The translations under genes were made by a program, and so were the position numbers. This document shows positions 3,425 through 46,979 of a stretch of 64,000 nucleotides of DNA, piece by piece. The notes beneath the pieces were generated by a model, which saw only the letters and a list, made by a program, of their open reading frames with translations, searched no databases and had not been told where the DNA came from. The DNA comes from an uncultured Candidatus Saccharibacteria bacterium (GTDB lineage: Bacteria > Patescibacteriota > Minisyncoccia > Phycocordibacterales > PALSA-1337). The DNA lies in NCBI GenBank assembly GCA_964529025.1, contig CAZGUZ010000001.1:6163-70162 (forward strand). The letters run 5' to 3'. Each line of letters starts with the position of its first letter. The stretch's first letter is position 1.

Positions 3425-3453
3425 AATACTGCTTGCAGAATATACAATAAAGG

Positions 3454-3490
3454 AAGCCGGCTTTCGCTTGCGAAAGCCGGCTTTTTGCCT
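3454..3490. terminator. Bidirectional intrinsic terminator
   Basis: 13-bp perfect stem AAGCCGGCTTTCG / CGAAAGCCGGCTT with a 4-nt loop. A T-run follows on the plus strand and a T-rich tract on the minus strand. It sits between convergent genes. Confidence 0.6.
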
Positions 3491-3502
3491 ACCACCAACA
3501 AC

Positions 3503-4180
3503 TTACCTGCTCTCACTGGTCGTAGCCAGCGTGAGCAATGCTCGGGCAAACACGGTAATTCGTATGCCCGAAGATTCAAGGGTACTAACTGCTCGCTTAT
3601 ATGCCTTTGAGATCGCCTGAGGGGTAACGCGATATTTCTTCGCCAGAGACTTTCGCACAACCCTCCGACCAAGAAAACTATGCTTATCAGGGCACACACC
3701 GAGCCTTTGGCACAAGACCTGCCAAAGCGAGTACCTGCAACGCTCACCCTGAAGAATCCGCCGTGCTCGCTCAACAAGTAAGTGAGCGCTGCGAACATCT
3801 TCTTGGTGTGCAACCATATCAAATGGTGTTGTGTGGCTTGAGCCATACCACTCAAAAGCAACTGTGGAAGTTTCAAAAAAATAAGTTCGAACTTTACCGG
3901 TCCAATACTTATTATTTGCCACAACCACAGTTGCCATTGTGCGCATGACTTCCATAGCGGCGCGCCGTGCAATGCTTTGGATGAATCCAGCAAAATTTTG
4001 GAACTTACGTCCCACCTTGCCCCACACTTCCTTAAGTACCTTAAGACGCGCCTCTTGCATAGCATCGTCAAAATACATGCTTGCATGACCGAGCACTGCG
4101 CTAACCGCTCTGCGCAAAAGCCCTTCACACCCAACAAGAAACTCAACCGGGTCCAGTTCATTGCTTGCACTCATATTCAT
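3503..4180 (-). CDS. ECF-type sigma-70 family protein (sigma region 2 and region 4), located in a GC-elevated island
   Basis: Region-2-like …FAGFIQSIARRAAMEVMR… and region-4 HTH …LAKKYRVTPQAISKAYKRAVSTLE…. Local GC is about 50% against about 38% in flanking genes, by eye. Confidence 0.5.
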   Translation of the reverse strand: MNMSASNELDPVEFLVGCEGLLRRAVSAVLGHASMYFDDAMQEARLKVLKEVWGKVGRKFQNFAGFIQSIARRAAMEVMRTMATVVVANNKYWTGKVRTYFFETSTVAFEWYGSSHTTPFDMVAHQEDVRSAHLLVERARRILQGERCRYSLWQVLCQRLGVCPDKHSFLGRRVVRKSLAKKYRVTPQAISKAYKRAVSTLESSGIRITVFARALLTLATTSESR

Positions 4181-4299
4181 AATAAAAAGCCTCCTACTTT
4201 ATAGTAGAGTCAGTTAAGCTTGGCGTCAATTTTTCTAGGAGCAAAGAGCTATCAACAGAACAACATACTCACGCAACAAACTCACTATATAATATAGAT

Positions 4300-5004
4300 A
4301 TGAAAACATCGCATATAGTACTTGTCGGTATTATTTTATTACTTATTGGTGTCATTATTCGTTTAGGTGTTAATAATTTCCACGGGAATAAAGGCATGGG
4401 TCCTGGGGATCGCAATGAATATTCTCAAGAATATGGAAGACAAAAAGATGTTCCAAAGAATATACGACCTGCGAGCGAAACTACAACAAAAGATCCTGCC
4501 ACAGGCCAAACTACTACAGCAAATTCAGGAAACAATTCAGGAGTAAATTCTGGAGTTATTTCAAGTGTTACTTTGCCATTCTTCAGTAACTATACCGTAA
4601 CAAAAAGTCAGGTTGCCCTCACCGATCTACCAGCAATTAATCCTAAGAGTCACTCTCTTGGTGCCGAGTACACAACTCGTTTTAGTGCAGCAAATGAGAC
4701 TGCTCCAAACTTTGCAGGAAAATACAGTATAGTTTCTTGGGGTTGCGGATCAAGTTGTGAAAGCGGTGCAATTGTAAATCGCGAAACTGGTCAAATTCTT
4801 GGACAGCTACCTGTTGTTGCTGAACGAGGACTCCTCTATGAAGCAGATAGTAAGCTTCTTGTAATTAACCCTTACGTAAACGACAACTATTCTAACTTTG
4901 AAGTATTGCCTACTCACTACTATGAATGGACAGGTACATCATTCAAGCATATTGGCTCATACTTTATTCAGAAAAATTCTCTTACCGTAGCACCAAAACC
5001 TTAA
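4300..5004 (+). CDS. Hypothetical membrane-anchored/secreted protein
   Basis: 234 aa. N-terminal hydrophobic anchor, a Thr/Asn/Gly-rich linker, then a globular region. No family was recognised. Confidence 0.45.
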   Translation: MKTSHIVLVGIILLLIGVIIRLGVNNFHGNKGMGPGDRNEYSQEYGRQKDVPKNIRPASETTTKDPATGQTTTANSGNNSGVNSGVISSVTLPFFSNYTVTKSQVALTDLPAINPKSHSLGAEYTTRFSAANETAPNFAGKYSIVSWGCGSSCESGAIVNRETGQILGQLPVVAERGLLYEADSKLLVINPYVNDNYSNFEVLPTHYYEWTGTSFKHIGSYFIQKNSLTVAPKP

Positions 5005-5040
5005 GTGCGACGTGTAGGTAAGGCGTATACTTAAATGCAA

Positions 5041-6951: not shown

Positions 6952-7593
6952 ATGACTCAATCAAACACAATTACTCAGGCTCTTGCATGGCGATATGCAG
7001 TTAAGACATTTGATGCAACAAAAAAGATTTCTGAGGGTGACTTCAAAACGATTCTCGAGTCTGCTCGATTAGCTCCAAGCTCAGTTGGTATTGAGCCATG
7101 GAAATTTATCGTTGTTAATAACCCTGAAATCCGCGCAAAACTCCGCGAAGTAAGCTACAATCAAACCAAAGTTACTGATGCTTCTCACCTTATCGTTATT
7201 GCGCAGCGAACCGACGCTCAGAACCTAATTAATGAAGCTGTTACACGAACTGCTCATAACCAAGGCAAAACCGAAGCAGAACTCGCTGGTTACCGAGGAA
7301 TGCTCGAAGGTACCGTAAAGCAATTTAGTAATGAAAATGACCTTCAGGCTTGGCTTCGTGCTCAAACATATATTCCTTTAGGTATGATGATTGAAACAGC
7401 AGCACTCCTCAATATTGATACTGGCCCTATGGAAGGTTTTGACCGCAATGCCGTTAATACCCTGCTAAATCTTGGCGAAAAAAACCTTGCTTCAGTAACC
7501 ATGCTTGCTCTTGGATACCGTGGCAATGATCCTTTTGCCCAGCTACCTAAAACTCGCCAGACTACTCAAGAGGCTGTAATTACGCTACCATAA
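6952..7593 (+). CDS. Nitroreductase family protein (NfsB-like)
   Basis: 213 aa. WRYAVKTFD…PSSVGIEPWKFIVV… is a typical NAD(P)H nitroreductase N-terminus. Confidence 0.7.
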   Translation: MTQSNTITQALAWRYAVKTFDATKKISEGDFKTILESARLAPSSVGIEPWKFIVVNNPEIRAKLREVSYNQTKVTDASHLIVIAQRTDAQNLINEAVTRTAHNQGKTEAELAGYRGMLEGTVKQFSNENDLQAWLRAQTYIPLGMMIETAALLNIDTGPMEGFDRNAVNTLLNLGEKNLASVTMLALGYRGNDPFAQLPKTRQTTQEAVITLP

Positions 7594-7681
7594 AGTATTA
7601 TCACATCTTGCATTAATACTTATTTTTCTTAAGGTGGAACAACATCCGCTTATACACAAGAAATATTCCAAACTTAAATAT

Positions 7682-7710
7682 TTGACTTTTGGGGCTGATA
7701 TGATTAGATA
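7682..7710 (+). promoter_or_regulatory. Putative sigma-70 promoter (TTGACT –17 nt– TAGATA) for a small orphan unit
   Basis: -35 TTGACT at 7682..7687, a 17-nt spacer, and a -10-like TAGATA at 7705..7710. An ATG follows at 7719, so the transcript would be leaderless or nearly so. Confidence 0.3.
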
Positions 7711-7718
7711 AACTTAGC

Positions 7719-7952
7719 ATGATTGCACATATTGTATTTAGTAATGGGAAAGAGACAACCCGCCATCCCAAGAAGAATCAGATTGAACTTCTCATCCAAG
7801 AAGTTGTGAGGTGGCGCGGAGTCGTACTGTCGGTTACACTTACAGACAATGGCAGCAAAACTATTGCCGTCTGGGAGAGGGTTGGTACAAGCCCACAATG
7901 TATGACCCTCACCCGAATGACACGGGAGTACGCAGAGCTCCAAGCAGCCTAG
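7719..7952 (+). CDS. Small hypothetical protein (77 aa), or alternatively a non-coding RNA transcript
   Basis: An ORF bounded upstream by a promoter-like element and 3' by a strong terminator. Local GC is elevated. No homology was recognised. Confidence 0.3.
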   Translation: MIAHIVFSNGKETTRHPKKNQIELLIQEVVRWRGVVLSVTLTDNGSKTIAVWERVGTSPQCMTLTRMTREYAELQAA

Positions 7953-7967
7953 ATCTTGGTGTCTCTG

Positions 7968-8000
7968 AGCGCCAGGGCATATATGCTCTGGCGCTTTTTT
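7968..8000 (+). terminator. Strong rho-independent terminator
   Basis: 8-bp GC-rich stem AGCGCCAG / CTGGCGCT with a 12-nt loop, followed by TTTTTT. Confidence 0.65.
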
Positions 8001-8036
8001 CTTGCACCACAACTCTCAAATATATTTTGAATATTT

Positions 8037-8065
8037 TTGACAAACAAAGCACTCAATGCTATAAT
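8037..8065 (+). promoter_or_regulatory. Consensus sigma-70 promoter (TTGACA –17 nt– TATAAT) upstream of the DEAD-box helicase
   Basis: Perfect -35 TTGACA at 8037..8042, an exact 17-nt spacer, and a perfect -10 TATAAT at 8060..8065. Confidence 0.55.
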
Positions 8066-8134
8066 AGTAATAACTTAAGAATATGTGTAGGGCTCTTGAG
8101 TGTTATTAATACCTGCACACTCAACCCATACATA

Positions 8135-9649
8135 ATGATTTCAGAATCTCGAGGAGCACGCGGACATAGTTCCGGCCGCTCTCATAACCCGCGCGGAAAC
8201 CGCGCACCAGGGCGTTTTTCAGCACCCCGAAAATTTCATTCTTCGGAAGGTGCTTCGCGAACCCCTGCACACAGTGCTCATGGTGCATCACATGGTGCTC
8301 ATAGTGCGTCACGTGGTCACGTGTCAGCTTCACGCTCACACGCTTCTGCTTCGCACTCTCATGCCCCTGCTTCACGTACCCAAACAGTAATTCGTTCGAG
8401 CGTACTTAAACAAGCAGAATTTGGCGGAGGATACAGAGGTGGTAATTCGCGCTTTGGAGGTAATTCACGAGGAGGATCACGAGGATTCTCAGGCGGACGA
8501 TCATTCGGCGGTTCACAAGGTGGACGCGGCCGAGGTGGTCGCTCAAGTAAATTCTTTGATGTATCAAAATACATTAATAAGAATCCTGTAGCACCAAAGA
8601 TTGAAGTCTACATGCCAAAGCACGCTTTTAGCGACTTTGCTGTTGACCCTCGAATTCACGCTCTCATTGCACGTAAAGGTATCACAACACCGACACCAAT
8701 TCAGGATCAGGTAATTCCTCACATCCTTGAAGGAAAAGATGTTGTCGGCCTTGCGGAAACAGGAACAGGTAAAACTGCAGCTTTCCTTGTACCACTTATT
8801 AATAAGATGGTTAAGGATCCAAAGCTCACAACACTTATTCTTACTCCGACACGAGAACTTGCAATACAAATCGAGAACGAGCTTCGAACACTTTCGTTCG
8901 GACTTGGAATCTTTGGCACATGTTGTGTGGGTGGAGTTTCAATTGGAGGCCAATTGCGCTCTCTTAAGTTTCACCAGCATTTCATTATCGGTACCCCAGG
9001 TCGAGTAAAGGACCTCATTGAGCGAAAAGCGATTTTCCCTTCACGAATAAGCACCGTTGTGCTCGACGAAGCGGATCGCATGCTTGATATGGGATTCATT
9101 AACGATATGAGAGCTATTCTTGGAGCAATGCCAGCTCATCGTCATACCCTTTTCTTCTCTGCCACAATGTCAGACGAAATTAAGAAATTGGTGCATGACT
9201 TCCTCAAGAATCCAGTAACAGTTGCTCTCTCAACTGGCCAAGCAGCCGCATCTATTGAACAGGATGTTGTCTTCTGTAAAGGAGCCGACAAAGTGGATGT
9301 ACTTGCTGATCTTTTGGCAAAACCAGAGTTTACACGAGTAATCATCTTTGGTCACACAAAGCATGGTGTAGAAAAACTCATGAGCAAACTTGCAACAAAA
9401 AATATTACGACAGACTCGATTCATGGAAATAAAAACCATAATCAACGACAGCGAGCACTCAATGCCTTCAAAAGCGGCGAAGTGCGAGTTCTTGTAGCAA
9501 CAGACGTTGCAGCTCGTGGTATCCACGTTGACAATGTAAGCCATGTTATTAACTTCGATCTTCCTGTAAGTTACGAAGACTATATTCACCGCATTGGCCG
9601 AACAGGCCGCGGAGCACAGCGAGGTAAAGCACTTACACTCATTGCATAA
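8135..9649 (+). CDS. DEAD-box ATP-dependent RNA helicase with a long N-terminal Ser/His/Arg/Gly-rich low-complexity (RGG-like) region
   Basis: Q-motif, Walker A AETGTGKT, DEAD box (VLDEADRM), SAT and HRIGRTGR motifs. The start is placed at the in-frame ATG at 8135, downstream of the consensus promoter; the ORF track extends to 7811. Confidence 0.85.
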   Translation: MISESRGARGHSSGRSHNPRGNRAPGRFSAPRKFHSSEGASRTPAHSAHGASHGAHSASRGHVSASRSHASASHSHAPASRTQTVIRSSVLKQAEFGGGYRGGNSRFGGNSRGGSRGFSGGRSFGGSQGGRGRGGRSSKFFDVSKYINKNPVAPKIEVYMPKHAFSDFAVDPRIHALIARKGITTPTPIQDQVIPHILEGKDVVGLAETGTGKTAAFLVPLINKMVKDPKLTTLILTPTRELAIQIENELRTLSFGLGIFGTCCVGGVSIGGQLRSLKFHQHFIIGTPGRVKDLIERKAIFPSRISTVVLDEADRMLDMGFINDMRAILGAMPAHRHTLFFSATMSDEIKKLVHDFLKNPVTVALSTGQAAASIEQDVVFCKGADKVDVLADLLAKPEFTRVIIFGHTKHGVEKLMSKLATKNITTDSIHGNKNHNQRQRALNAFKSGEVRVLVATDVAARGIHVDNVSHVINFDLPVSYEDYIHRIGRTGRGAQRGKALTLIA

Positions 9650-16222: not shown

Positions 16223-16678
16223 TCAAATCTTCCTAAAGAACTTTATTTCGTTCTCCAGATTTAAACCCCAAACGTCTTTATTAAATGATAATAAACGTAC
16301 ATACTCTATTCCATATGTAGATGGCTCGGTACGACATACGATTTCAACGGTATATAAATCGTGCACTGTATCTTCTGAAAATAAATATTTGCACACGACT
16401 AACCTCTGAACAGAAATAAATTCTCGAGAAAAAGAATCAGTTATTTGTAGCACTTCATTATTCTGCAGCTTGTAAATAATGTAACCATACTTAAGCGAGC
16501 TCTGTATCCAATCTGAATAATGTTGCGAAGTTTCCATAAGCACCTTACGTACCTCGCTACGAAATATACTGTCATGAATAATAAACTGGGATACGTTTCG
16601 CTTTACAACAATAACCATCACAAAACTCATAACGATAAAAACTGCGGGTGTAGCAATAAAACCCTTAGTGTGTAACAT
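16223..16678 (-). CDS. Hypothetical membrane-anchored protein in the pilus cluster (weak pilin-like N-terminus)
   Basis: KGFIATPAVFIVMSFVMVIVV is a hydrophobic N-terminus but lacks the acidic +5 residue. The gene is co-oriented within the pilus locus. Confidence 0.35.
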   Translation of the reverse strand: MLHTKGFIATPAVFIVMSFVMVIVVKRNVSQFIIHDSIFRSEVRKVLMETSQHYSDWIQSSLKYGYIIYKLQNNEVLQITDSFSREFISVQRLVVCKYLFSEDTVHDLYTVEIVCRTEPSTYGIEYVRLLSFNKDVWGLNLENEIKFFRKI

Positions 16679-16805
16679 AGTGCTCTAAATTAATGTTGTC
16701 AGCCTTCCATGCAGAAATTTCGGCAAAGCCAAAACTAATAAACGTATTGAGACAAAGCCCAATTATAGACATTAAAATGATGTGTAGACAGTATTCGATA
16801 AGCAT

Positions 16806-17939
16806 TTATATGTAGTTACCTATATGATAGCGGCCATTGCATATGCTCAGGCTAATTGCCGGAGCCCTCATAGTAGAACTTATATTATGCTCGCCTAATA
16901 AATCCCTTATTCCAAAACTTGGTTTATTTGTTGCCAGCGTATATGGCTCATCAATGATGGCTGCACTTGTACTATAGCCACGAATACCATAAACACTTGC
17001 ACCTATGTCATAAGTTTTTCTGACCCATAATTCACCTTCTGTAATATCAATGATCGCCAACTCTGGTTCGTGGATCACATTGAAACCACCAACTGATCTA
17101 CCCACTGCAAATGTTGAAGTTCCAAGCCACGACAAAGACATAACATCATGCGTTGCATAGCCAGGAAAACTTACTGAGTCTTTAATATAAAATACCCCTT
17201 CATTTATACCGCCCAGTAAAAATACCTCTTGCCCTGCTCCTGTACCGACGACAACAGAATCATTGTTGGCAATAATATCTGTTACGACTGATCCTATTTC
17301 AAAAGTATTTACTACCGATATATTTTTAAGTGAATCAACACGAATAACTGAGAGTTCAGGACCGTCCCATTTTTCTGTTCCAACTGCCACATACCCCGAG
17401 CCAATATGTACAACACTACGAACAACTGGTGTCGATGTTGCTCTCGCCCTAGGTAAATTGAGCGTATTTACTAAAACCAACTGACCACTCGCATCAAATT
17501 CAAAATATCCAAGATGATTGTTGATCGAGGTATTCCCCGCAAGAATACCCTGACCCACCACATCAAAAGCTTGCGTACCTGGGCCAAAGTTGTATGAAGC
17601 AATTAATTTCCAAGCAGAAGTTTTTTTATAAACCCGAATATCATCATCGCTACTCTGTGTACTATCGTACGAGGCTATGAGCAGCGGACCCTGTTGCCAC
17701 ATATGCGTCATATTTGCAGTCGAGGGAATATCAATTATTTTAAAATTAAAGTTACCGAAACAGCGATATGGATTCTGGGTATCTATTGAAGCTTGGGAGC
17801 CCTGAATACTTTTAATAGAGTTCACCATAGATGAAATCTGTATTTTTGAACGCGGTATATTTGCAAGCATAATAGCTAAAACACTGAGGAGTGCCAAAGC
17901 GAGTAATGTATCGGTAGAAATAAAACCGCGTATCAACAT
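16806..17939 (-). CDS. Large pilin-like protein (class III signal; candidate minor pilin / pilus-tip-associated)
   Basis: RG^FISTDTLLALALLSVLAIM has D at +5. A roughly 340-aa globular region follows that may be beta-rich; I recognised no family for it. Confidence 0.45.
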   Translation of the reverse strand: MLIRGFISTDTLLALALLSVLAIMLANIPRSKIQISSMVNSIKSIQGSQASIDTQNPYRCFGNFNFKIIDIPSTANMTHMWQQGPLLIASYDSTQSSDDDIRVYKKTSAWKLIASYNFGPGTQAFDVVGQGILAGNTSINNHLGYFEFDASGQLVLVNTLNLPRARATSTPVVRSVVHIGSGYVAVGTEKWDGPELSVIRVDSLKNISVVNTFEIGSVVTDIIANNDSVVVGTGAGQEVFLLGGINEGVFYIKDSVSFPGYATHDVMSLSWLGTSTFAVGRSVGGFNVIHEPELAIIDITEGELWVRKTYDIGASVYGIRGYSTSAAIIDEPYTLATNKPSFGIRDLLGEHNISSTMRAPAISLSICNGRYHIGNYI

Positions 17940-20177: not shown

Positions 20178-20816
20178 ATGAATGTACATTTCATTGGAAA
20201 GCCCTGCAGTGGCAAAGGGCGACTTGGTGAGCACCTCATTGAGGTGCTCCGGCAGAATGGCTTCCCCGCATTCTATGCGGGAACTGGAGCTGCGGTTCGA
20301 TTCAAGATCGAAACCGACCCCGCCTTTGCAAGGCAATTTAGGGCGAAAATCGAGAGGCGGTCTCTACTCGATGATGGTCAACTCTGGACAATTGTCCAAG
20401 AGCTCATCGTAAGGAATAATATTCCTTTGAACGATCCCGACGTGGTAATCCTTTGGGACTGCGTACTGCGGAATGCAGCACAGACCCGGCGGATGAGCCA
20501 GGAGGGAATCCTCCAGCCCGGCGACCTGGTGATTTACGTCGAAGTCACCGACGCAACTGCTAAGATGAAGTTACAGCTGCGGAGAGAAGAACAACATCGA
20601 ACTGATGACAACACCGATGCACACGACGAAGGTGTTCGTCGGTTCAATGCCAGTCTTCATGAGGTGCTCGGCGCCATTCGCGAGTCGGGGGCAACCTTGG
20701 TTACGGTGAACGCAAACTTGCCGCTCGAGAAGTGGCTTGCAAATGCCAGGAAGCAGATGTTCGATCACTTCCAGGCTCAGGGCTTCACAGCCCAAGGCAC
20801 CCCTGTTGCGGCTTGA
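20178..20816 (+). CDS. Adenylate-kinase-like P-loop nucleoside monophosphate kinase, GC-rich (likely xenolog)
   Basis: P-loop FIGKPCSGKG and an AK-like RTDDNTDAHDEGVRRF (compare RxDDNEETIxKRL). GC is about 55% by eye against about 40% nearby. Its own strong terminator follows. Confidence 0.5.
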   Translation: MNVHFIGKPCSGKGRLGEHLIEVLRQNGFPAFYAGTGAAVRFKIETDPAFARQFRAKIERRSLLDDGQLWTIVQELIVRNNIPLNDPDVVILWDCVLRNAAQTRRMSQEGILQPGDLVIYVEVTDATAKMKLQLRREEQHRTDDNTDAHDEGVRRFNASLHEVLGAIRESGATLVTVNANLPLEKWLANARKQMFDHFQAQGFTAQGTPVAA

Positions 20817-20840
20817 AAGCTGTTACAGCGCAAAACGAAA

Positions 20841-20868
20841 AGCACCCCCACGGGGGTGCTCTTTTTTT
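20841..20868 (+). terminator. Rho-independent terminator
   Basis: AGCACCCCC-acg-GGGGGTGCT stem followed by TTTTTTT. Confidence 0.7.
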
Positions 20869-24305: not shown

Positions 24306-24330
24306 TCGGTCGACGACGTGAAGTAGCCAC

Positions 24331-24363: not shown

Positions 24364-24413
24364 TCCCCTTTTAATTTACATACTCGAGTAAAATATTTAC
24401 TCCAAACAAAAAA

Positions 24414-36566: not shown

Positions 36567-37859
36567 ATGTCAAAAACAAGAAGGAGAAGCGAGTCGATGA
36601 ATGTCGATTTAACTATCAACAAGTGGGCGGGAGTTAGCAGCTTGAAGCCCACAAAGCGACAACTTGGGATACTCCATACCATGCTTACCGAGCTCATCAG
36701 TGAGCTCGTGAAATATGGACTCCCCGCCGAAGGGGGCTACTGGGTGACGCTTGATGCTGGGTCAACGGTTGGTACCAACCAGCACGAATATCGGATCCAG
36801 AAACGTGGCGGGAACGGTAATCGCCCAGGACTTGTGTTCCTACGGGTATGGCTTGAGATGGGCACGTGTTTCGCGGCGTCACTTACACTTCCGGGAAACA
36901 ACAGGCTTGCTACACTCTGCGATGCAGCTGTGCGCAAAAGCCTTGGCACTCACAATCACTTCCAGTTCACCCAAGAGGGCAAACTGGTGCGTGCTGGTGA
37001 CAGTGGCACTGAGGTTCAGCGCTCTGCAAAACCTGCAGAGCCTACTACAGAGCCTGTAGAACCTGTAGCGGCTACTGCGAGCGCACAAGAAAGTGCCGCA
37101 GTGCAACTCGAATCAAGGGTGGAGCCAACTACCCCTGAGCAAACCCAAGCTGGCACGAATACGGCTGAGGGTAGCGGGGCTGCCGAATCGGAAGATTCAG
37201 ACTCCACTGTTGGGTTGAGCAGGTTCTTTGCGGACAACTCAAACCAGGTACTAATCCTCGCACAGCTTGCCGAGCTGTGTATCAAGGACAACACCAAGGA
37301 GGTTACCTTCCCCGATTGGATCAAATCCCTCGAAGAACAGTGGGGATCGAAGTACAAGATCACCTCGGTGGGAGTCCGCCGGGCGATTGCGCGTGAGGGC
37401 CGAAGGATCGGCTGGTTCTCACGGAAGGTTGAGTTTGGAACGACCTGGTACTCAATCACACAGGTTGGGGTGAAAATCCTTTCAGCCGAGCACAGCTATC
37501 GCGATCTCGCTGATAAGTACCGGCAAATTGCCGGATATACTTCGAATGATCCGGTGGCGCCAGCGACGAACGATCCGTTGGCACAGCTGGCCAGCAAGCA
37601 CGCCGAGTATGTCACTTCCGAAAGGGAGTTGCATGAACTCAGGACCGAACTGGCCGAGTCGGTGGAAATCCTGACGAACTTGCGGGAAACCGTGAGTCGC
37701 CTCGACAGAGAGCTCCGGGCTGCTAAAGCCTTGCTGCGGGAGTCCGAGGCTGACACTGTCACCGAGGACGATGTCGCGGCGGCAGAGCGAAAGCTCGCCG
37801 AACTGCGCCCGGCAGAAGAGCAGTATCAACGAGTTGTTGCGCTACTTGCTCTTCGCTGA
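36567..37859 (+). CDS. Hypothetical 430-aa protein in a strongly GC-rich island (about 57% GC by eye); acidic/Pro-Thr linker, winged-helix-like region, C-terminal coiled coil
   Basis: The base-composition contrast with flanking trmD and khpA is clear. The gene has its own strong terminator. No family was recognised. Confidence 0.45.
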   Translation: MSKTRRRSESMNVDLTINKWAGVSSLKPTKRQLGILHTMLTELISELVKYGLPAEGGYWVTLDAGSTVGTNQHEYRIQKRGGNGNRPGLVFLRVWLEMGTCFAASLTLPGNNRLATLCDAAVRKSLGTHNHFQFTQEGKLVRAGDSGTEVQRSAKPAEPTTEPVEPVAATASAQESAAVQLESRVEPTTPEQTQAGTNTAEGSGAAESEDSDSTVGLSRFFADNSNQVLILAQLAELCIKDNTKEVTFPDWIKSLEEQWGSKYKITSVGVRRAIAREGRRIGWFSRKVEFGTTWYSITQVGVKILSAEHSYRDLADKYRQIAGYTSNDPVAPATNDPLAQLASKHAEYVTSERELHELRTELAESVEILTNLRETVSRLDRELRAAKALLRESEADTVTEDDVAAAERKLAELRPAEEQYQRVVALLALR

Positions 37860-37873
37860 CAAGGAAAAACAAA

Positions 37874-37908
37874 CCGCCGAGACACGAATGTCTCGGCGGC
37901 CTTTTTTA
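37874..37908 (+). terminator. Rho-independent terminator of the GC-rich island gene
   Basis: CCGCCGAGACA-cgaa-TGTCTCGGCGG stem followed by CCTTTTTTATT. Confidence 0.7.
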
Positions 37909-38740: not shown

Positions 38741-38875
38741 GGGATAGATAATAACAGAACTCTAGAAAAATGCAAGCACCTGCACCGTTTTAGCTTAAAA
38801 GTGAGCTTGGGGGTTGAAATAACAAAAGAAAACCGCCCTACTTACTCAGCAGAGCGGCTGCAAGTGATGCCTGGA

Positions 38876-39481
38876 CTATGCAAGCCCGGACACCACCTTT
38901 TGTTCATGACTCACACCGGCGCCGCCCCCTACAGGAATAAGGTCGAAGCCGAAGTCAGCCTCGATCACTTGCGCCAGTCGCAAGGAATCATTGAGACCCT
39001 TGAAACCGAGACGAGCTGTTGGCAATGAGGTAATTACCGGCATACCATGCTCAACATGCGCCCTCAAGCCAAGCTTGAGTGATTCGAAATCCCTCGGCCA
39101 CTCGCCGTCACCGAAGACTTCTTTGCACCGCTTGGCAATACGGAACCAGCGATGCGAGTTTGCGAACGGAGTGAATACAGGGATCACGAAAAGTGAACTC
39201 ACTGGCCACATCGAGAGAAAGCCGGCAATGGCACCGAATCCCAGCGCCATATTAACCGCACCACACATGCGTGCAATGTAATAAACTGCAACAGCCAGGC
39301 TGATGCACATCACCACAGGACCGATAATACCTGCCCAGATGAGCCAAACCGAGGGTGGCTTGCGAAATCTTGCAACTCCGCAAGGCGCAAGAACCTCCCC
39401 GATTGTTGCATCTGCCTTCTTGCACAATTCAACTTCTTCTGTTGTCATACAGTAACCAAATAAATGTTCCAACATCAACAC
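38876..39481 (-). CDS. Hypothetical integral membrane protein in a GC-rich island
   Basis: Three or four hydrophobic helices. GC is about 55% by eye. Alternative starts are at 39475 or 39448. No family was recognised. Confidence 0.4.
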   Translation of the reverse strand: MLMLEHLFGYCMTTEEVELCKKADATIGEVLAPCGVARFRKPPSVWLIWAGIIGPVVMCISLAVAVYYIARMCGAVNMALGFGAIAGFLSMWPVSSLFVIPVFTPFANSHRWFRIAKRCKEVFGDGEWPRDFESLKLGLRAHVEHGMPVITSLPTARLGFKGLNDSLRLAQVIEADFGFDLIPVGGGAGVSHEQKVVSGLA

Positions 39482-39615: not shown

Positions 39616-41634
39616 ATGAACACTCATTCTTCGCCTCAACCGGCAGCTGCACACAACAATTCTCACCAACGTCAAACACCTTCTAACCCAACACTCATTC
39701 AAGGAATCATCACAACAACCCGCAAAGGAATGGGCTTTGTTGATAATCCAGCCGATGCAGAAAACGATATCGTAATCGAGGCCGGCAACCTTAACACCGC
39801 TCTTCATGGTGACCTTGTACAAGTATCACTTTTTCCTAAGCGCAAAAGCGGCAATAAAGATTTTGAGCAAACCGGTGAAGTCATTAAAATCTTAGAGCGA
39901 GCTCGCACAGAATTTGTAGGCACAGTTGAATCTGAACGCGGTCTTGTTTTTGTTACCCCTGACGAAAGAAAATCGTATACCGATTTTGTTGTTCCTGCAG
40001 ATAAAACTCTTGGGGCAGTTAACGGAGACAAGGTTGTTGTTAAACTTATTTCATGGACTGATGCAAAAAAGAGTCCTCAAGGAGAAATAGTTCGTGTCAT
40101 TGGTAAAAAAGGAATTAACGATGTAGAGATGGAGGCTATCGTGCTTGAAAGTGGTTTTGATACTCGCTACCCCGCCCCCGTTATCGAAGAAGCCGAGAAG
40201 CTTGCTCAAACACAGATTCCAATTCCTCAGAACGAAATTGCTCGTCGCCGTGATATGCGCAATGTTCTTACTGTAACTATTGACCCTATCGACGCCAAAG
40301 ACTTTGACGATGCAATTTCTTTTGTTGAGACAGGCACAAAAACATCTGACGGTTTAGATATTTACGAGATTGGCGTGCATATTGCCGATGTTTCGCACTA
40401 TGTACAAGAAGGCACAGCTCTTGATGAAGAAGCACAAGCTCGAGGCTGCTCTATTTATCTTGTTGACCGAACTATTCCTATGCTACCTGAGGTTCTTTCA
40501 AACGGTCTCTGTAGTCTTAATCCTCATGAAGACAAGCTTACTTTCTCTGCAGTTTTTATGATGGATATTCGTGGTCGTGTTCATGATCGCTGGTTTGGTC
40601 GCACTGTAATCAATTCAAATCGCCGCTTTACCTATGAAGAAGCTCAAGAATGTCTCGAAACCAAAGCTGGTGATTTCGCCAAAGAATTAATTACCCTTAA
40701 TACCATTGCCAAAGAACTCCAAAAAGAGAAATTTAATAAAGGAGCAATCGAATTTGAGCAAGATGAAATTAAGTTCAAGCTTGATGAAACTGGAAAGCCA
40801 ATTGGTGTATACAAAAAAGTACGTAAAGATGCTCATAAGCTTGTCGAAGAATACATGCTTCTTGCAAACCGCGAAGTAGCAAAATTTATTTACTCAGAGA
40901 TCAAGCGTAAAGGTCATAAAGACACTGGCTCAATTTATCGAATCCACGATGTTCCCGACAAGGATCGCATTGCTGATCTGGGAATTTTTGTGCGCGCTCT
41001 TGGCTACAGCCTCAATACTGATAAAGAAATTACTGCCCACGACCTCAAAAAACTCCTTAAGCAAATTGAAGGAACTCAGCATGAAGATCTTATTCGAACA
41101 GCAACAATTCGATCAATGCAAAAAGCTATCTATTCAACCAAAAATATTGGGCACTTTGGTCTAGCTTTTGATTATTACACACACTTCACTTCGCCAATTC
41201 GTCGTTACCCTGACCTTCTTGTACAGAGAATTCTTCATAAGCATCTTGCTGGCGAACCTTTCGGCGATCGTGATGCAGTTCGCTTTGAAAGTATTGCTCA
41301 AAAATCAACACGACGCGAAATCGACGCAGCGGACGCAGAGCGAACATCAATCAAGCTCAAGCAAGTTGAGTTTATGGCGCAGCACATTGGTAAAAAATTT
41401 ACCGGTACCATTTCTGGTGTTACTGAATGGGGTATTTACATTGAAGATGTCGACACTCGTTGCGAAGGAATGGTAAAGATCCGTGATCTTGGTGATGATT
41501 TCTATGAGTTCAATAAAAAGACCTATTCAATTACTGGCAAGAAATCAGGCAAAAAGTATACCTTGGGTGATAAAGTAACCTACACCGTTGTAGCCGCAAA
41601 CCTCGAAACTCGCACACTGGATTATAAAATATAA
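39616..41634 (+). CDS. rnr: Ribonuclease R (RNB-family 3'-5' exoribonuclease with a C-terminal S1 domain)
   Basis: RNB catalytic motifs (…IDPIDAKDFDDAIS…), a cold-shock-like N-terminus and an S1 C-terminus. The start is taken at the ATG at 39616; the upstream ORF-track extension overlaps an opposing gene. Confidence 0.85.
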   Translation: MNTHSSPQPAAAHNNSHQRQTPSNPTLIQGIITTTRKGMGFVDNPADAENDIVIEAGNLNTALHGDLVQVSLFPKRKSGNKDFEQTGEVIKILERARTEFVGTVESERGLVFVTPDERKSYTDFVVPADKTLGAVNGDKVVVKLISWTDAKKSPQGEIVRVIGKKGINDVEMEAIVLESGFDTRYPAPVIEEAEKLAQTQIPIPQNEIARRRDMRNVLTVTIDPIDAKDFDDAISFVETGTKTSDGLDIYEIGVHIADVSHYVQEGTALDEEAQARGCSIYLVDRTIPMLPEVLSNGLCSLNPHEDKLTFSAVFMMDIRGRVHDRWFGRTVINSNRRFTYEEAQECLETKAGDFAKELITLNTIAKELQKEKFNKGAIEFEQDEIKFKLDETGKPIGVYKKVRKDAHKLVEEYMLLANREVAKFIYSEIKRKGHKDTGSIYRIHDVPDKDRIADLGIFVRALGYSLNTDKEITAHDLKKLLKQIEGTQHEDLIRTATIRSMQKAIYSTKNIGHFGLAFDYYTHFTSPIRRYPDLLVQRILHKHLAGEPFGDRDAVRFESIAQKSTRREIDAADAERTSIKLKQVEFMAQHIGKKFTGTISGVTEWGIYIEDVDTRCEGMVKIRDLGDDFYEFNKKTYSITGKKSGKKYTLGDKVTYTVVAANLETRTLDYKI

Positions 41635-41654
41635 AAACACCCGGCTTAGTTGTT

Positions 41655-41765
41655 GTAGTTTTACATAACAAAATACTATTTGTATGAAAGGGCTAGTAAA
41701 GGCACGCAGGTGCCTTTACTCGAAGATAATTTCAACCATGAAATTATCTGTACCTTATATACAAA
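41655..41765. repeat. Nested inverted-repeat structure in a convergent intergenic region: perfect 19-bp inverted repeat (41655..41673 / 41747..41765) enclosing two further hairpins
   Basis: AACAAAATACTATTTGTAT and its exact reverse complement, 73 nt apart. Inner hairpins are GTAAAGGCAC-gcag-GTGCCTTTAC and GATAATTTC-aaccat-GAAATTATC. Confidence 0.55.
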
Positions 41766-41780
41766 TAGTATTTTGTTTTG

Positions 41781-44048: not shown

Positions 44049-44083
44049 GGATATATTGTACCATGTGTATTAAACACCTACCC

Positions 44084-44833: not shown

Positions 44834-44844
44834 ATATACTTATA

Positions 44845-45756
44845 TTATTTCTTCCCTTCTACGTGCTTTGAAACAAGCATAATTGCTTTAGTAACAATAG
44901 GAAGAATATCGTTATAAAAATTTAATTCGAGAATGTCCGAAAGCTTAAACCAGCGTGCATCATCAAGACCGCCACTTGTACCCAGAGTAATTGGATCGAA
45001 GAAAGATTCTGCTAAAAAGTAGTGAACCTGTTTTCGAATCTTACCTTTTTCTGGATCTGAGGCTACATATTCATTACTTCCCAAATCTTCTTTAATGGTA
45101 ATATCAAGGCCCATTTCTTCTTTAATTTCGCGAATGGTTCCTGTGCGAACATCTTCTTCTGCTTCGATTTTTCCTTTCGATAGAGTCCAGTGGCCAAATA
45201 TATCATGAACAAGGGCTAAGTATGTTTCGCCTTGGTGTTGCGCATATACCACTGCTCCGCCGAGTTTTTGAATTGGCATTTGCTCAAAAGGAACATCTTT
45301 TGGACGCTTCTTTTTTGGTTCAGCATCTTTACCAGGTTCACCGAGTTCTTTATACACAGATCCCAAGACTCCGTTAACAAACTTTCCACTGTTTTCTCCG
45401 CCGAAAGTTTTTGCAAGCTCAATAGCTTCGTTAATTGCAACTTTTGCTGGCACTTCGTTGCGGTCTGAGAATAGAAGTTCGTAAAGACCGATACGAAGAA
45501 TATTTCTGTCTGAAATTGAAATCTTATCGATGGGCCATTCAGGGGCAGCTTTTTCAATTACAGCGTCGAGATCTTTGCGCTTAGCAGCAATACCCTGTGT
45601 AAGGGTTTCCATAAATGAAAGATCGCCCATACCAGGAGCAAATTCCTCGGCATTACGGGCGATGCTTTCTTTGAGTACTTCAAGTGAATAACCTCTAAAA
45701 TCCCACTCGAAAAGTGTTTGCATTACTATCGATCGAGAAAGATGTCTATTGGCCAT
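44845..45756 (-). CDS. nusB: NusB antitermination factor fused to a C-terminal NUDIX hydrolase domain
   Basis: The N-terminal roughly 140 aa match NusB (…VPAKVAINEAIELAKTFGGENSGKFVNGVLGSV…). The C-terminus carries a canonical NUDIX box GKIEAEEDVRTGTIREIKEEMGL (Gx5Ex7REUxEExGU). Confidence 0.7.
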   Translation of the reverse strand: MANRHLSRSIVMQTLFEWDFRGYSLEVLKESIARNAEEFAPGMGDLSFMETLTQGIAAKRKDLDAVIEKAAPEWPIDKISISDRNILRIGLYELLFSDRNEVPAKVAINEAIELAKTFGGENSGKFVNGVLGSVYKELGEPGKDAEPKKKRPKDVPFEQMPIQKLGGAVVYAQHQGETYLALVHDIFGHWTLSKGKIEAEEDVRTGTIREIKEEMGLDITIKEDLGSNEYVASDPEKGKIRKQVHYFLAESFFDPITLGTSGGLDDARWFKLSDILELNFYNDILPIVTKAIMLVSKHVEGKK

Positions 45757-45806
45757 TTTTTTGAAGAACTACTGCATTTAAACTTTATAATACTGTAAGT
45801 GTATCG

Positions 45807-45992
45807 CTACTCGGCTTTTGAGGCAATGTCGAGAACCTTGCGACCTCGGTACATGCCTGTTTTGAGGCAGACGTGGTGTCGAAGATGTGCTACACCAGTG
45901 TCTTTGGCAACAGTTGTACGTGTTGCATCTAAAGCATGATGTGAGCGTCGATTGTCCCGGTGTGCCCGGTTAGCACGCATTCTGTTTACCAT
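45807..45992 (-). CDS. rpmB: 50S ribosomal protein L28 (tentative)
   Basis: 61 aa, basic. …DNRRSHHALDATRTT…HLRHHV…GRKV… resembles the L28 …GNNRSHALNATKRRF…NL…RV… pattern. Confidence 0.45.
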   Translation of the reverse strand: MVNRMRANRAHRDNRRSHHALDATRTTVAKDTGVAHLRHHVCLKTGMYRGRKVLDIASKAE

Positions 45993-46154
45993 AGTGATGC
46001 TATATTACATCATTTTGTATGAATGTGCAAGCACTTAAATAAGTTAACTGCGAGTATCAAAATAAACCAGGCTTTTGCTAAAAATATACAAAAGAAAGAG
46101 CCAGCGTCCGGTTAAGAAACGCTGGCTTTTTGTGCCGCCCCGTAGGGGCGGTTG

Positions 46155-46979
46155 TTATTTCGGTGGTTGCGGAGTTGTCTTGATTCTACGTCTAACAACA
46201 TATTCCGCAGCGTGGGTTGGGTCGCCAGCAAGATCTTTGAACTCCGGTTGACTCAGAAGCCCTTCGTATTCTTGTGCAACTCTACCCGTTGTCTCAAGGC
46301 GTGACAGTAGTCGTAGTGTTTGTAGCACCGCGACTGTGTGTGCCACTGGCCCGTGGCAGGACTGCATTTGACCAACAAGCTTTCCTGCCTCAACCCAATT
46401 TGGCGGCTGAAGTTCTTCTGATCGCCTGGTTCCTCGATCAGAATCAGTAATAACTTGTTTTCGTAGCGATGAATCGATTCTTGGTGTCGCCACGAATGCA
46501 AAAACATTCTTTTGATGGAGCGAAGCGCCTAATGCGCTTACGTCAGCCTTAACGCACCACGATATGATCGGGGTGAGTTCAGAACTTACTGACCCAAGAT
46601 CTTCTGAACTCGCATCAATAGGGTGCAGTAATTCTACGAAAACCACACCCTGAACAAATACCTCAGTCTCGAGGCACCGAGTGACCACTGCAGCCGGATC
46701 TTCGGGCTTCTCCAAATTCAGATCCGCAGCCGACTTTCCAGACTCTGATGGTAATTGGATTCTGGTCCTCTTAGACCAGCCCATTCTCGATTCCGAGACG
46801 AAAGCGAGCACTTCTACTCGCCCTTCGTTTGTAATCCTCACAATGCAGCAAATTGCTGCTGACGAGGAGACTTTCGATGGGGGCGCGCCATCATTTGATG
46901 CATTCGCCCCCTCGTTCGGTGTCATATTACTCTTTCTAATCCGCCGAAGCAGATTGGGGGTTATGTCAGATTTCTCCAA
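46155..46979 (-). CDS. Hypothetical 274-aa protein in a GC-rich island
   Basis: GC is about 53% by eye. The gene is flanked 3' by tandem hairpins. No family was confidently recognised. Confidence 0.4.
   Translation of the reverse strand: MEKSDITPNLLRRIRKSNMTPNEGANASNDGAPPSKVSSSAAICCIVRITNEGRVEVLAFVSESRMGWSKRTRIQLPSESGKSAADLNLEKPEDPAAVVTRCLETEVFVQGVVFVELLHPIDASSEDLGSVSSELTPIISWCVKADVSALGASLHQKNVFAFVATPRIDSSLRKQVITDSDRGTRRSEELQPPNWVEAGKLVGQMQSCHGPVAHTVAVLQTLRLLSRLETTGRVAQEYEGLLSQPEFKDLAGDPTHAAEYVVRRRIKTTPQPPK

Follow-up and report, generated by a model that had tools for sequence, protein, structure and literature searches.

Six, and probably seven, single-gene units of high GC content (islets) lie between the AT-rich housekeeping operons of the window, i.e., the whole 64,000-nt stretch of Patescibacteria DNA analysed here. 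We put the probability at about 0.55 that these are old, lineage-private units which were added singly, inherited in place and shuffled as alleles among strains, and which stem from a source outside the compositional regime of the core genes. They are not recent imports from any sampled high-GC organism.

Composition and layout of the islets

The sequence-only reading of this DNA had proposed at least six discrete GC-enriched single-gene stretches, most with their own GC-rich intrinsic terminator and none with mobility genes, integrases or flanking repeats. Our measurements support this description. The window has a GC content of 42.2%, and its 46 core genes average 0.411 in GC (sd 0.021, range 0.344-0.444) and 0.321 in GC3 (sd 0.032, maximum 0.395). 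The six islets show GC values of 0.49-0.56 and GC3 values of 0.44-0.59, i.e., GC3 z-scores of 3.7-8.4 relative to the core set. The units are:

3503-4180, minus strand: I225, 225 aa, ECF-sigma-like candidate; GC 0.493, GC3 0.465, GC3 z 4.4; promoter-like site 4229-4201, hairpin terminator 3483-3454
7719-7952, plus strand: ORF77, 77 aa, plausible seventh islet; GC 0.487, GC3 0.50; terminator hairpin with 13-bp stem 7967-7996
20178-20816, plus strand: I212, 212 aa, adenylate-kinase-like candidate; GC 0.541, GC3 0.592, GC3 z 8.4; terminator 20841-20860
24048-24305, plus strand: I85, 85 aa, orphan protein; GC 0.519, GC3 0.558, GC3 z 7.3; perfect palindromic hairpin with 14-bp arms 24331-24358
36567-37859, plus strand: I430, 430 aa, winged-helix-like and coiled-coil protein; GC 0.556, GC3 0.592, GC3 z 8.4; bidirectional terminator 37874-37899
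38876-39448, minus strand: I201, 190 aa, putative membrane protein; GC 0.532, GC3 0.545, GC3 z 6.9; terminator 38859-38831, promoter-like site 39545-39517
46155-46925, minus strand: I274, 256 aa, predicted Nudix fold; GC 0.498, GC3 0.440, GC3 z 3.7 (all over 46155-46979); hairpins 46127-46099 and 46134-46152, unit 46099..46928

All six loci proposed earlier stand, but the extents 38876..39481 and 46155..46979 began at GTG/TTG codons further upstream; according to public gene calls and alignments, I201 more likely starts with the ATG at 39448 and I274 with that at 46925. A two-state HMM on raw GC, run independently, recovered 5/6 islets (segments 20201-20861, 24081-24368, 36623-37901, 38833-39401 and 46098-46923), while I225, with its weaker GC signal, received no call.

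At fourfold-degenerate sites, the islets use the four bases about equally (A.24, C.24, G.26, T.27), and usage in the core is skewed (A.32, C.17, G.09, T.41). TGA stops end 3/6 islets vs. 2/46 core genes, and the islet proteins are enriched in Ala, Arg, Val and Trp and depleted in Lys, Ile and Tyr. The dinucleotide signature, normalised for base composition, equals that of the core (delta*.052 vs..048±.018). Two rapidly evolving genes, orf151 and orf377 (86-87% identity, dN/dS.12), have GC3 values of.31-.34; fast evolution by itself is thus no cause of GC-richness.

A strong GC hairpin is found directly 3' of every islet. The GC-rich domain extends from the start codon to this terminator, and the upstream DNA is AT-rich (31-36% GC) and promoter-like, where the promoter calls rest on consensus matches, which shuffled sequence yields at least as often. 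We found no convincing direct or inverted repeats flanking the islets, no phage genes near them, no PHROG matches, and no integrase, transposase or reverse transcriptase among the window ORFs scanned (all but four at 62290-63938 and a few below 80 aa).

Two further GC-rich stretches are of a different kind. Positions 8148-8544 encode the N-terminal tail of a DEAD-box helicase, which is of low complexity and made of Arg, Gly, Ser and His, and 919-1097 is non-coding DNA adjoining tRNA-Asn.

Islet products

I225, I212 and I274 are best described as common folds in extremely divergent form: I225 is ECF-sigma-like, I212 adenylate-kinase-like and I274 of the Nudix type. I225 matches the sigma70-ECF model TIGR02937 over nearly its full length (E 6.6e-6), but with 25.8 bits vs. 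a cutoff of 42.9, and Pfam Sigma70_r2 with E.019. This suggests a highly diverged ECF-sigma-like protein, for which the homologs retrieved are near-identical strains only. Similarly, I212 resembles adenylate-kinase models full-length but weakly (TIGR01351/01360, E 5e-10 to 1e-7, every score far under cutoff) and has an adenylate kinase as its best PDB match (E 4e-4), consistent with a diverged adenylate-kinase-like P-loop protein. For I274, the AF2 model (pLDDT 75.6, pTM.78) has Nudix hydrolases as all of its best 50 Foldseek matches against the PDB (best E 9.6e-4, probability up to 1.0) and adds a helical C-terminal extension. I274 is therefore modelled as a protein of the Nudix fold; its Nudix box is degenerate and lacks most catalytic Glu residues as judged by eye from the alignment. 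Unlike typical members of their superfamilies, these proteins are extreme outliers, and enzyme or sigma-factor activity may be absent from all three.

I430 begins with an alpha/beta domain, continues with a disordered linker and a winged-helix-like domain, and ends in a coiled coil; its AF2 model (pLDDT 59) has no significant Foldseek match. I201 is probably a small membrane protein, given hydrophobic segments identified by eye in its translation. Family searches with I85 were negative.

The unit at 7719..7995 had been suggested as a possible seventh islet. Its GC, GC3 and terminator fit the class, and the 77-aa ORF is also called in public assemblies, but all copies found are identical. The ORF has no Pfam match. 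The unit as a whole (7719-7996) has no Rfam match and an RNA fold z of -4.3, such that it could be a structured RNA instead of a coding gene.

Conserved position in related genomes

Family-level relatives, in which RNase R is 49-63% and rpoB up to 82% identical, share the gene orders trmD-khpA-S16-RNase R and L32-RNase HII-DnaE, but have no gene inserted in them. Here, trmD-khpA and S16-RNase R are adjacent in six relatives (L011, L012, L014, L016, L022, L040), and L32-RNase HII in two (L022, L088) with no gene between. The four checkable islets, I430, I201 and I274 among them, are absent: I201 is missing between S16 and RNase R, and I274 is lacking in two relatives while a third has an ORF-less spacer there. 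Since the core order is kept without them, the checkable islets are lineage-specific, one-by-one additions. The gene-by-gene part of the acquisition proposed by the sequence-only reading thus holds; a donor was not found.

Within the lineage, every species-level contig carries the islet orthologue at the same site. I85 is 85% identical in L092, where the adjoining helicase is 98% identical. The orthologues of I212 (85% identical in L092, 54% in the genus-level relative L093) both adjoin the same AddA-type helicase, whose dS to L093 is about 1.6. I274 has a homolog in the groundwater contig L108, likewise a genus-level relative, at the same RNase HII-L32 site, although DnaE is only 73% identical. 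Both islets predate genus-level splits, which contradicts a recent acquisition.

In a sister strain (L090), the interval between RNase R and SMC holds extra GC-rich orphans (242 aa, GC.567; 129 aa, GC.544); the same interval of the window has none.

Evolutionary rates and allele exchange

No other genes of the region vary as much as the islets, which evolve under weak purifying or diversifying selection. Their dN/dS ratios are.14-.37 vs..01-.07 in the core, below 1 in all comparisons, at dS values mostly like those of their neighbours (e.g., dN/dS.15 for I212 vs..03-.06 in neighbours;.37 for I85). These ratios mark the islets as genuine protein-coding genes whose constraint is relaxed.

At three loci, alleles of 27-55% identity lie between flanks that are 96-100% identical. 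For I430, alleles are 76-77% and 27% (L009) identical with flanks at 89-100%; dS is saturated against L009, while the flanks show dS.08-.18. I201 is 97.9% identical in L002 and 29-36% (depending on method) in L090, with flanks at 93-97%. I274 alleles are 94%, 55% (L094) and 44% (L102) identical with flanks at ~99%. Saturated dS was observed in both pairs tested (I430/L009, I274/L102; flank dS.08-.33). Identity falls exactly at the islet gene borders, and allele divergence is uncoupled from that of the core. That is, very old alleles are shuffled among near-identical strains at three or more loci. From such alleles between near-identical flanks we infer that homologous recombination in the conserved flanking DNA exchanges them.

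This pattern resembles replacement-type flexible loci or hypervariable genes under diversifying or balancing selection (e.g., surface-antigen or O-antigen loci exchanged by recombination in their flanks), which likewise show a locus common to strains, dS-saturated alleles, near-identical flanks, sharp borders and allele divergence independent of the core. Unlike these, the islets are lone small genes instead of glycan clusters; apart from one membrane protein, their products look cytoplasmic (Nudix fold, winged helix plus coiled coil). Their gene-wide dN/dS is below 1, and only three loci show deep alleles.

Persistence of GC-richness

All diverged alleles are GC-rich (GC3.41-.62) whatever their divergence, including the one in L093. 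Pooled polarised synonymous changes are balanced (19 S>W vs. 18 W>S), which gives an implied equilibrium GC3 of ~.53 for the islets vs. ~.34 for four core genes. Decay toward core composition is not evident in these 37 changes, a small set pooled by hand and subject to parsimony bias. GC kept in all alleles and no clear decay fit poorly with a single acquisition followed by drift or amelioration.

These data would also be expected if the islets were resident genes whose GC is actively maintained, either by GC-biased gene conversion (gBGC) at loci where diversifying selection for imported alleles makes recombination unusually frequent, or by direct sequence selection. The bounds of the GC-rich domain at start codon and terminator and the core-like dinucleotide signature are in accordance with this. 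So are the raised divergence and the even use of fourfold sites in the native, syntenic RNase HII next to I274, and the W>S excess in the adjacent DnaE. The islets share with bacterial gBGC, which Lassalle et al. reportedly described in 2015, a higher GC3 at recombining loci and a W>S share above that of neighbouring core genes. Nevertheless, we regard maintenance as unlikely. The islet effect amounts to 12-27 GC3 points, while bacterial gBGC is reported to account for a few. Directly next to the islets, the effect is mostly absent: the neighbours of I430, I201 and I212 show a normal GC3 of.29-.35, although conversion tracts should spill over. I274 taken singly shows more S>W than W>S changes, and the absence of the genes from family-level relatives is left unexplained. 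If maintenance applied, islet composition would reflect population biology and be silent on origin.

Possible sources of the islets

A GC-richer reservoir outside the sampled genomes, i.e., phages or plasmids of the lineage or closely related GC-richer Patescibacteria, might repeatedly re-seed the sites, which would account for deep alleles and persistent GC together. The unit structure is in line with this idea. Phage 'morons' (Juhala/Hendrix) are said to be lone additional genes that lie between conserved ones and bring a promoter and a terminator of their own; likewise, an islet is a single gene of deviant composition with a promoter-like site 5' and a factor-independent terminator 3', placed between two genes that lie side by side in relatives. 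Unlike morons, the islets sit among chromosomal housekeeping operons (rpoBC, trmD, S16, RNase R, DnaE, L32) and not in a prophage. Further points in favour are the deep alleles with sharp borders, the L090 orphans, the I274 homolog with a GC3 of.54 that is typical of its 48%-GC genome (L108), and the 18 bp at 931-948 that duplicate the 3' end of tRNA-Asn and indicate past integrase activity in the genome. On the other hand, three islets gave no match in IMG/VR, six gave none in 50,697 phage and 72,556 plasmid records, and no non-syntenic islet copy was found in the protein collections searched. Replacement with precise borders furthermore requires near-identical donor flanks, so the donors would have to be conspecific chromosomes. 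Re-seeding from such a reservoir is therefore rather improbable.

The sequence-only reading pointed to repeated single-gene transfer from a high-GC donor and named, as speculation, an actinobacterial host. Such a model, in which fairly recent, independent transfers from a cellular donor left GC as an un-ameliorated trace, agrees with the atypical GC, GC3, codon use, TGA stops and amino acid content as well as with the lack of the checkable islets in family-level relatives. The islets also share with islets and ORFans attributed to transfer their restriction to a lineage, the lack of detectable homologs and faster protein evolution. Acquired genes and ORFans are, however, usually AT-richer than the genome, while these are GC-richer, keep their position in relatives at the species and genus level, and come without donor, mobility signature or clear amelioration. 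Searches with I430, I212 and I274 across 5.8 billion clusters / 15 billion proteins gave no homolog outside the lineage. All real homologs (for I430 just 4 clusters among 5.8e9 proteins, for I274 five homologs among 1.84e9 representatives) fall within this lineage, and wherever one was traced to a contig, it occupies the same chromosomal site in a close relative. The sequence-only reading had itself named such in-lineage, syntenic homologs as arguing against acquisition. Its Saccharibacteria framing is not supported either, as the core genes resemble Paceibacteria/Taylorbacteria-type genomes (best matches include Ca. Taylorbacteria/Paceibacterota MAGs); actinobacterial hosts are known for another group. 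Single-gene transfer into Patescibacteria has been reported, but the surveyed events are mostly Patescibacteria-to-Patescibacteria with only 1 credited to Actinomycetota (PMC12455944). Together with the core-like dinucleotide signature and the age of I212 and I274, this makes a recent cellular donor very improbable.

That the islets are assembly chimeras or non-coding GC-rich DNA with chance long ORFs (stops being AT-rich) has next to no probability and is rejected for the five larger ones: overlapping long ORFs do occur (e.g., 3289-4170, 37016-37459) and I85 and ORF77 lack family matches, but the same structures appear in independent NCBI, ENA, JGI and Logan assemblies, dN/dS stays below 1, ORFs and residue patterns are kept between alleles of 27-55% identity, and I225, I212 and I274 show fold or family signals.

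We thus favour old, singly added units. In each, a GC-rich ORF would be preceded by an AT-rich promoter region of sigma-70 type and followed by a GC hairpin terminator; the units would have been inserted one by one between housekeeping operons after the split from family-level relatives and passed down in place since. Alleles would be swapped by way of the conserved flanking DNA, and uptake of DNA plausibly precedes this; genes for type IV pilus PilB/PilC and for pilins lie in the window itself. Judged by composition, codon usage and TGA stop codons, the islets would originate outside the core regime, in an unsampled source such as a mobile-element gene pool or GC-richer Patescibacteria. As no donor or reservoir was found, this foreign origin rests on composition. 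The lineage-private products would comprise an ECF-sigma-like, an adenylate-kinase-like, a degenerate Nudix, a winged-helix plus coiled-coil and a membrane protein as well as one or two tiny proteins. Speculatively, their functions might be accessory and differ between strains, and concern regulation, the metabolism of nucleotides or the envelope in the context of host or phage interactions.

Composition of the islets and of other GC-rich stretches

The islets, i.e., single GC-rich genes between core genes, were compared with a core set of 46 genes, for which ORF length, synteny and Pfam content served as criteria. The whole window has a GC content of 42.2%, and the 46 core genes show a GC of 0.411 ± 0.021 (range 0.344-0.444) and a GC3 of 0.321 ± 0.032 (maximum 0.395). 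Respective values for the islets are as follows.

Islets with GC, GC3 and z-score of GC3 relative to the 46 core genes
I225: 3503-4180, minus strand, gene with a weak sigma-factor signal; GC.493, GC3.465, z 4.4
I212: 20178-20816, plus strand, gene of a putative adenylate-kinase-like protein; GC.541, GC3.592, z 8.4
I85: 24048-24305, plus strand, short ORF; GC.519, GC3.558, z 7.3
I430: 36567-37859, plus strand, gene with a weak coiled-coil signal; GC.556, GC3.592, z 8.4
I201: 38876-39448, minus strand, 190-aa membrane protein gene; GC.532, GC3.545, z 6.9
I274: 46155-46925, minus strand, 256-aa gene with a modelled Nudix fold; GC.498, GC3.440, z 3.7

The atypical composition that the sequence-only reading had noticed by eye is thus confirmed, with GC3 z-scores between 3.7 and 8.4. 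A gene-blind two-state HMM on raw GC recovered 5/6 islets, where its borders differed from ORF plus terminator by at most a few tens of bases. The fourfold sites of core genes are T/A-biased and G-poor (A.32, C.17, G.09, T.41), while those of the islets are flat (.24/.24/.26/.27 for A/C/G/T). Likewise, the codons CGG, CTG, GCG and GGG are frequent in islets but almost absent from core genes. That is, the islet-core difference is more than one of amino-acid content. TGA is the stop codon of 3/6 islets vs. 2/46 core genes. The compositional observation is therefore real and statistically strong.

A seventh unit possibly fits the islet class. It consists of a 77-aa ORF (7719-7952, plus strand; GC3.50), of which only identical copies were retrieved, followed by a terminator with a 13-bp stem that is the strongest in the first 20 kb. 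The RNA of positions 7725-8000 (plus strand) folds far better than shuffled sequences (z = -4.3), and the unit may be a coding gene or a small RNA. Rfam returned only two tRNAs for the whole window (gathering threshold) and no family beyond tRNAs for 700-1400 and 7550-8150 (E-value threshold).

Unrelated to the islets are a non-coding GC-rich stretch beside tRNA-Asn and the GC-rich stretch at 8148-8544, which encodes the low-complexity Arg/Gly/Ser/His tail of a DEAD-box helicase. In this part of the helicase gene (8135-8580, plus strand), the N-terminal tail of about 140 aa is RGG-like with 56% GC. The start is most likely ATG 8135 (504 aa), the one that public annotations use, and a perfect TTGACA-17-TATAAT promoter with extended TG is found ahead of the gene (8037-8065).

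Lineage, insertion and age

The best matches of RNase R (58-63% identity) are MAGs labelled uncultured Ca. Saccharibacteria, Ca. Taylorbacteria, Minisyncoccia and Paceibacterota, and the rpoB product shows 82% identity to a Ca. Taylorbacteria MAG. The window therefore belongs to a Patescibacteria lineage without a species-level representative in the genome collection; its population occurs in many public assemblies. For RNase R itself (39616-41634, plus strand; loci L018-L089), identities of 47-50% to Sphingobacteriia/Bacteroidota vs. 46-49% to several other Paceibacterota hint at an old transfer between Bacteroidota and Patescibacteria. A 759-aa RNase R ORF from GTG 39355 overlaps I201, while public calls have 672 aa; this GTG is probably not the real start.

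In six family-level relatives (L011, L012, L014, L016, L022, L040), trmD adjoins khpA and S16 adjoins RNase R, leaving no space for I430 or I201. L32 and RNase HII adjoin in L022 and a further family-level relative (L088), and I274 is absent. This check covers the sites of I430, I201 and I274; no distant locus spanned I225, I212 or I85. At the covered sites, the islets are insertions relative to family-level relatives. The earlier idea of many small independent additions holds, given that these relatives keep the core order without I430, I201 and I274.

The islets are neither recent nor patchy. Five of them have an orthologue at the same site and in the same orientation in a diverged species-level contig covering the site, and the retrieved copies of I225 and of the 77-aa ORF are near-identical only. 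Among close relatives no patchy presence was seen, i.e., islets are absent only from family-level relatives. The I212 homologue of the genus-level relative L093 (54% identity, GC3.47) is located beside the same AddA-type helicase, which is 71-74% identical between the window and L093 with a dS of about 1.6. In the groundwater contig L108, also a genus-level relative (DnaE 73% identical), an I274 homologue with 27-34% identity lies between RNase HII and L32; its GC3 of.54 is ordinary in that genome of 48% GC.

Unit structure and mobility signatures

A strong hairpin, among the strongest of the window, is found 12-25 nt past the stop of each islet. The DNA upstream of each islet is AT-rich (31-36% GC) and contains a sigma-70-like hexamer pair; these promoters are consensus matches only. 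With one ORF, an own promoter-like site and a factor-independent terminator, islets resemble phage morons. In contrast to morons, which reside in a prophage or phage setting, no prophage surrounds them: their neighbours are rpoB/C, trmD, khpA, S16, RNase R, the AddA-type helicase, RpoD, L32, RNase HII and DnaE, and a PHROGs scan of the islets gave no matches.

Flanking repeats at the islets do not exceed chance, and neither target-site duplications nor terminal inverted repeats were detected there. No integrase, transposase or reverse transcriptase was found among the ORFs scanned, a set that leaves out those at 62290-63938. The description as single-gene units with their own terminator and without mobility genes hence stands. 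A role of the terminator hairpins as DNA-uptake sequences was rejected, as they share no common motif. A diversity-generating retroelement is not indicated either, with no reverse transcriptase among the scanned ORFs and a divergence that covers whole islet genes.

The sole att-like repeat lies outside the islets, at tRNA-Asn (1098-1170, minus strand). The last 18 nt of this gene, GATCCCTGCCGCCGGAGC, recur about 170 nt downstream (about 931-948). Within 892-1170, the sequence between the copies has 59% GC, and behind each copy lies a hairpin of its own with a T-run. The arrangement looks like the attL/attR scar of an almost wholly decayed tRNA-targeting integrative element. The first two codons of three islets (3503-4180, 20178-20816 and 24048-24305) are ATGAAT (Met-Asn), which in I430 recurs in frame 10 codons past the first ATG (36597); such starts may reflect chance in an AT-rich genome.

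Products encoded by the islets

I225 shows a near full-length match to the sigma70-ECF model TIGR02937 (E 6.6e-6; 25.8 bits vs. a cutoff of 42.9) and reaches 15.2 bits for Pfam Sigma70_r2 (cutoff 24), with no sequence match in the PDB. I212 contains the P-loop GKPCSGKG; its best adenylate-kinase model scores 39 bits vs. a cutoff of 284, and the best PDB adenylate kinase has E 3.8e-4. Its sequence suggests an adenylate-kinase-like P-loop protein, far below family cutoffs.

I274 models as a Nudix fold with a helical C-terminal extension. For the AF2 model (pTM.78), the top 50 Foldseek matches in the PDB are all Nudix proteins (probability up to 1.0, target-normalised TM up to.63). The Nudix box is degenerate: relative to GX5EX7REUXEEXGU the window reads ...EDPAAVVTRCLETEVF, and only the first and last Glu are invariant box residues in the family alignment. 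Pfam gave no match, and the family profile had no significant match among PDB sequences. Recent paralogy of I274 with the two in-lineage Nudix proteins, including that of the neighbouring NusB-Nudix gene, was rejected, as hhalign aligned them only weakly and in the Nudix-box region.

The low-confidence I430 model (pLDDT 59) suggests an alpha/beta domain joined by an acidic, disordered linker to a winged-helix-like domain, with a long coiled coil after it. Foldseek vs. PDB yielded nothing significant for it beyond a weak resemblance to PadR/LmrR winged helices. I201 is a small membrane protein, and the sequences of I85 and the 77-aa ORF are uninformative on the product.

Search for a donor

The sequence-only reading had proposed gene-by-gene acquisition from a high-GC donor, perhaps an actinobacterial host. 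This was not borne out, since no homologue of I430, I212 or I274 was found outside the lineage. I430 matched four clusters in 5.8 billion, even with a profile including its 27% identical allele, I212 three clusters only, and HMMER, run over all 1.84 billion representatives, gave five real matches for I274. All homologues of these three islets come from the same lineage, and every fetched contig represents the same Patescibacteria site; that is, I430, I212 and I274 combine lineage-confined homologues with conserved synteny, the outcome that the sequence-only reading itself had named as evidence against acquisition. I225, I85 and I201 were checked against family libraries and phage/plasmid sets only (plus IMG/VR for I225).

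IMG/VR scans with I430, I212 and I225 revealed no relatives, a tblastn search of the six concatenated islets against phage and plasmid records no match, and the metagenome scan with P0021 no match either. Pfam, PHROGs, PADLOC and NCBIfam gave nothing above cutoffs for any islet, with weak sigma, adenylate-kinase and coiled-coil signals, and no islet matched a defence-system model.

Evolution of the islets and probable allele exchange

The dN/dS values of the islets (.14-.37) exceed those of core genes (.01-.07), while islet dS is mostly like that of the neighbours. The islets are therefore real coding genes under weak constraint that are mostly co-inherited with their flanks. Positive selection is not indicated by these gene-wide ratios, all below 1, from 2-4 sequences per islet. 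For I212 and I85, dN is only moderately raised.

Three islets deviate from their flanks much more strongly. I430 is 76% identical in strains with flanks of 98-100%, and only 27% identical in a strain with khpA at 100% and trmD at 98%. I201 is about 30% identical in the species-level contig L090 (flanks 93-97%), and I274 alleles are 94%, 55% and 44% identical with DnaE, L32 and NusB at 98-100%. Among species-level contigs, dS is saturated for I430 between the window and L009 and for I274 vs. L102 (dS 2.2), with flanks at.08-.33. L090, with a 76% allele of I430, is more distant from the window in its core than the strain that carries the 27% allele; allele depth is thus uncoupled from core divergence. 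With aa identities of 27-55% vs. 93-100% in the flanks and a DNA identity that drops exactly at the borders of the genes, I430, I201 and I274 resemble hypervariable replacement loci.

Old islet alleles are inferred to be kept in the species complex and shifted between backgrounds via homologous recombination in the conserved flanks. DNA uptake as the basis of this shuffling is plausible, since the window encodes the type IV pilus components PilB, PilC and pilins. A single expanding family was rejected, as no paralogous pair of islets emerged when these and the extra orphans were compared all against all.

The site between RNase R and SMC is a gain/loss hotspot. In the sister strain L090 (contig CAZWGR010000001.1, 14713-16987), it holds four extra genes, namely two GC-rich orphans (242 aa with GC.567; 129 aa, membrane-like, with GC.544) and an AT-rich pair of a 56-aa ORF and a Nudix gene. 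The window shows only a 146-nt spacer there (41635-41780), which implies that gene gain and loss are ongoing.

Fast evolution is also observed for AT-rich genes. Two genes without Pfam match in the type IV pilus cluster (16223-17939, minus strand; orf151 and orf377 with 151 and 377 aa) show identities of 86-87%, vs. 94-98% for their neighbours, have a dN/dS of.12 and a core-like low GC3, and were used as controls. An AT-rich 253-aa protein built from charged repeats in tandem (HVPQYIHDLKKEL..., KKDLERFATK...) is encoded at 50978-51739 (minus strand) and at 577-1227 of the species-level contig L094. It is 72-78% identical between strains with DnaE at 98-100%, i.e., fast-evolving with ordinary composition, and its repeat number is apparently variable.

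Why the islets are GC-rich

Four results bear on the source of the islet GC. First, every islet allele is GC-rich, however diverged (GC3.41-.62). Second, at the helicase dS of about 1.6, a core-like process would erase about 3/4 of an initial GC3 excess per branch (rough two-state estimate); despite this, I212 shows a GC3 of.59 in the window and.47 in L093. Third, the parsimony-polarised synonymous changes pooled over islets comprise 19 GC-to-AT vs. 18 AT-to-GC changes (283 S and 238 W sites), small counts that imply an equilibrium GC3 of about.53. For SMC, RNase R, NusB and the helicase, 69 GC-to-AT vs. 91 AT-to-GC changes (367 S, 939 W) imply about.34. Among the islets, the substitutions of I274 alone look like decay, while I212 goes in the opposite direction; DnaE is the exception among core genes with an implied equilibrium of.54. 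Fourth, the dinucleotide signature normalised for base composition is equal for islets (delta*.052) and core (.048 ±.018). In addition, RNase HII, a native and syntenic gene adjoining I274, combines raised divergence with islet-like flat codon usage.

Given these results, two non-standard readings remain, i.e., that islet GC is actively maintained, by biased conversion or selection, or that islets are re-seeded from an unsampled GC-richer reservoir. Foreign origin, the conventional reading, fits the four results poorly. Relaxed constraint alone was rejected, as the fast-evolving orf151 and orf377 have a GC3 of.31-.34 and intergenic DNA has 38% GC, and so was head-on orientation, since three islets run in the direction of their neighbours, and RNase R and DnaE, both head-on, are ordinary.

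We put forward, tentatively and with a probability of roughly 0.3, that lineage-private hypervariable genes have kept about 50-60% GC3 in a 32% GC3 genome through synonymous saturation, which needs a gene-specific force. Candidates for this force would be strong recombination-linked GC-biased conversion, sequence selection or an unseen mobile reservoir, itself GC-rich, that continually re-seeds the genes.

RNase HII (47033-47755, minus strand) behaves as a half-islet beside I274. Its fourfold sites are A.24, C.23, G.23 and T.31 with a GC3 of.39; it is syntenic in all relatives and 92-94% identical between strains with DnaE, NusB and L32 at 99-100%. DnaE (47720-50920, plus strand) shows 67 AT-to-GC vs. 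31 GC-to-AT polarised synonymous changes, unlike other core genes. It has the top GC3 of the large core genes (.395) and 46-48% GC around 49000-50000.

Implications

The islets are best described as old, lineage-private, moron-like, fast-evolving accessory genes, and I430, I201 and I274 as loci that behave like replacement-type hypervariable loci. They are a new instance of genome dynamics of known kinds, where the unexplained part is a GC-richness apparently without decay. The islets resembled direct evidence of gene flow from a high-GC host to epibiotic Patescibacteria, which they are not; the result should halt this attractive yet unsupported inference.

About one gene in ten here, in a region dense in housekeeping genes, is a private and fast-evolving accessory unit, and at three loci ancient alleles are shuffled among near-identical strains. 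Loci of this kind are the obvious candidates for interactions with host or phage that differ from strain to strain in unculturable organisms. If confirmed by population data, a GC-richness that outlasts the expected amelioration informs what sets bacterial base composition, i.e., mutation bias vs. biased gene conversion vs. selection. If a gene-specific force is indeed at work, the islets would be a natural system to measure it in a bacterium that is ultra-small, episymbiotic and presumably competent.
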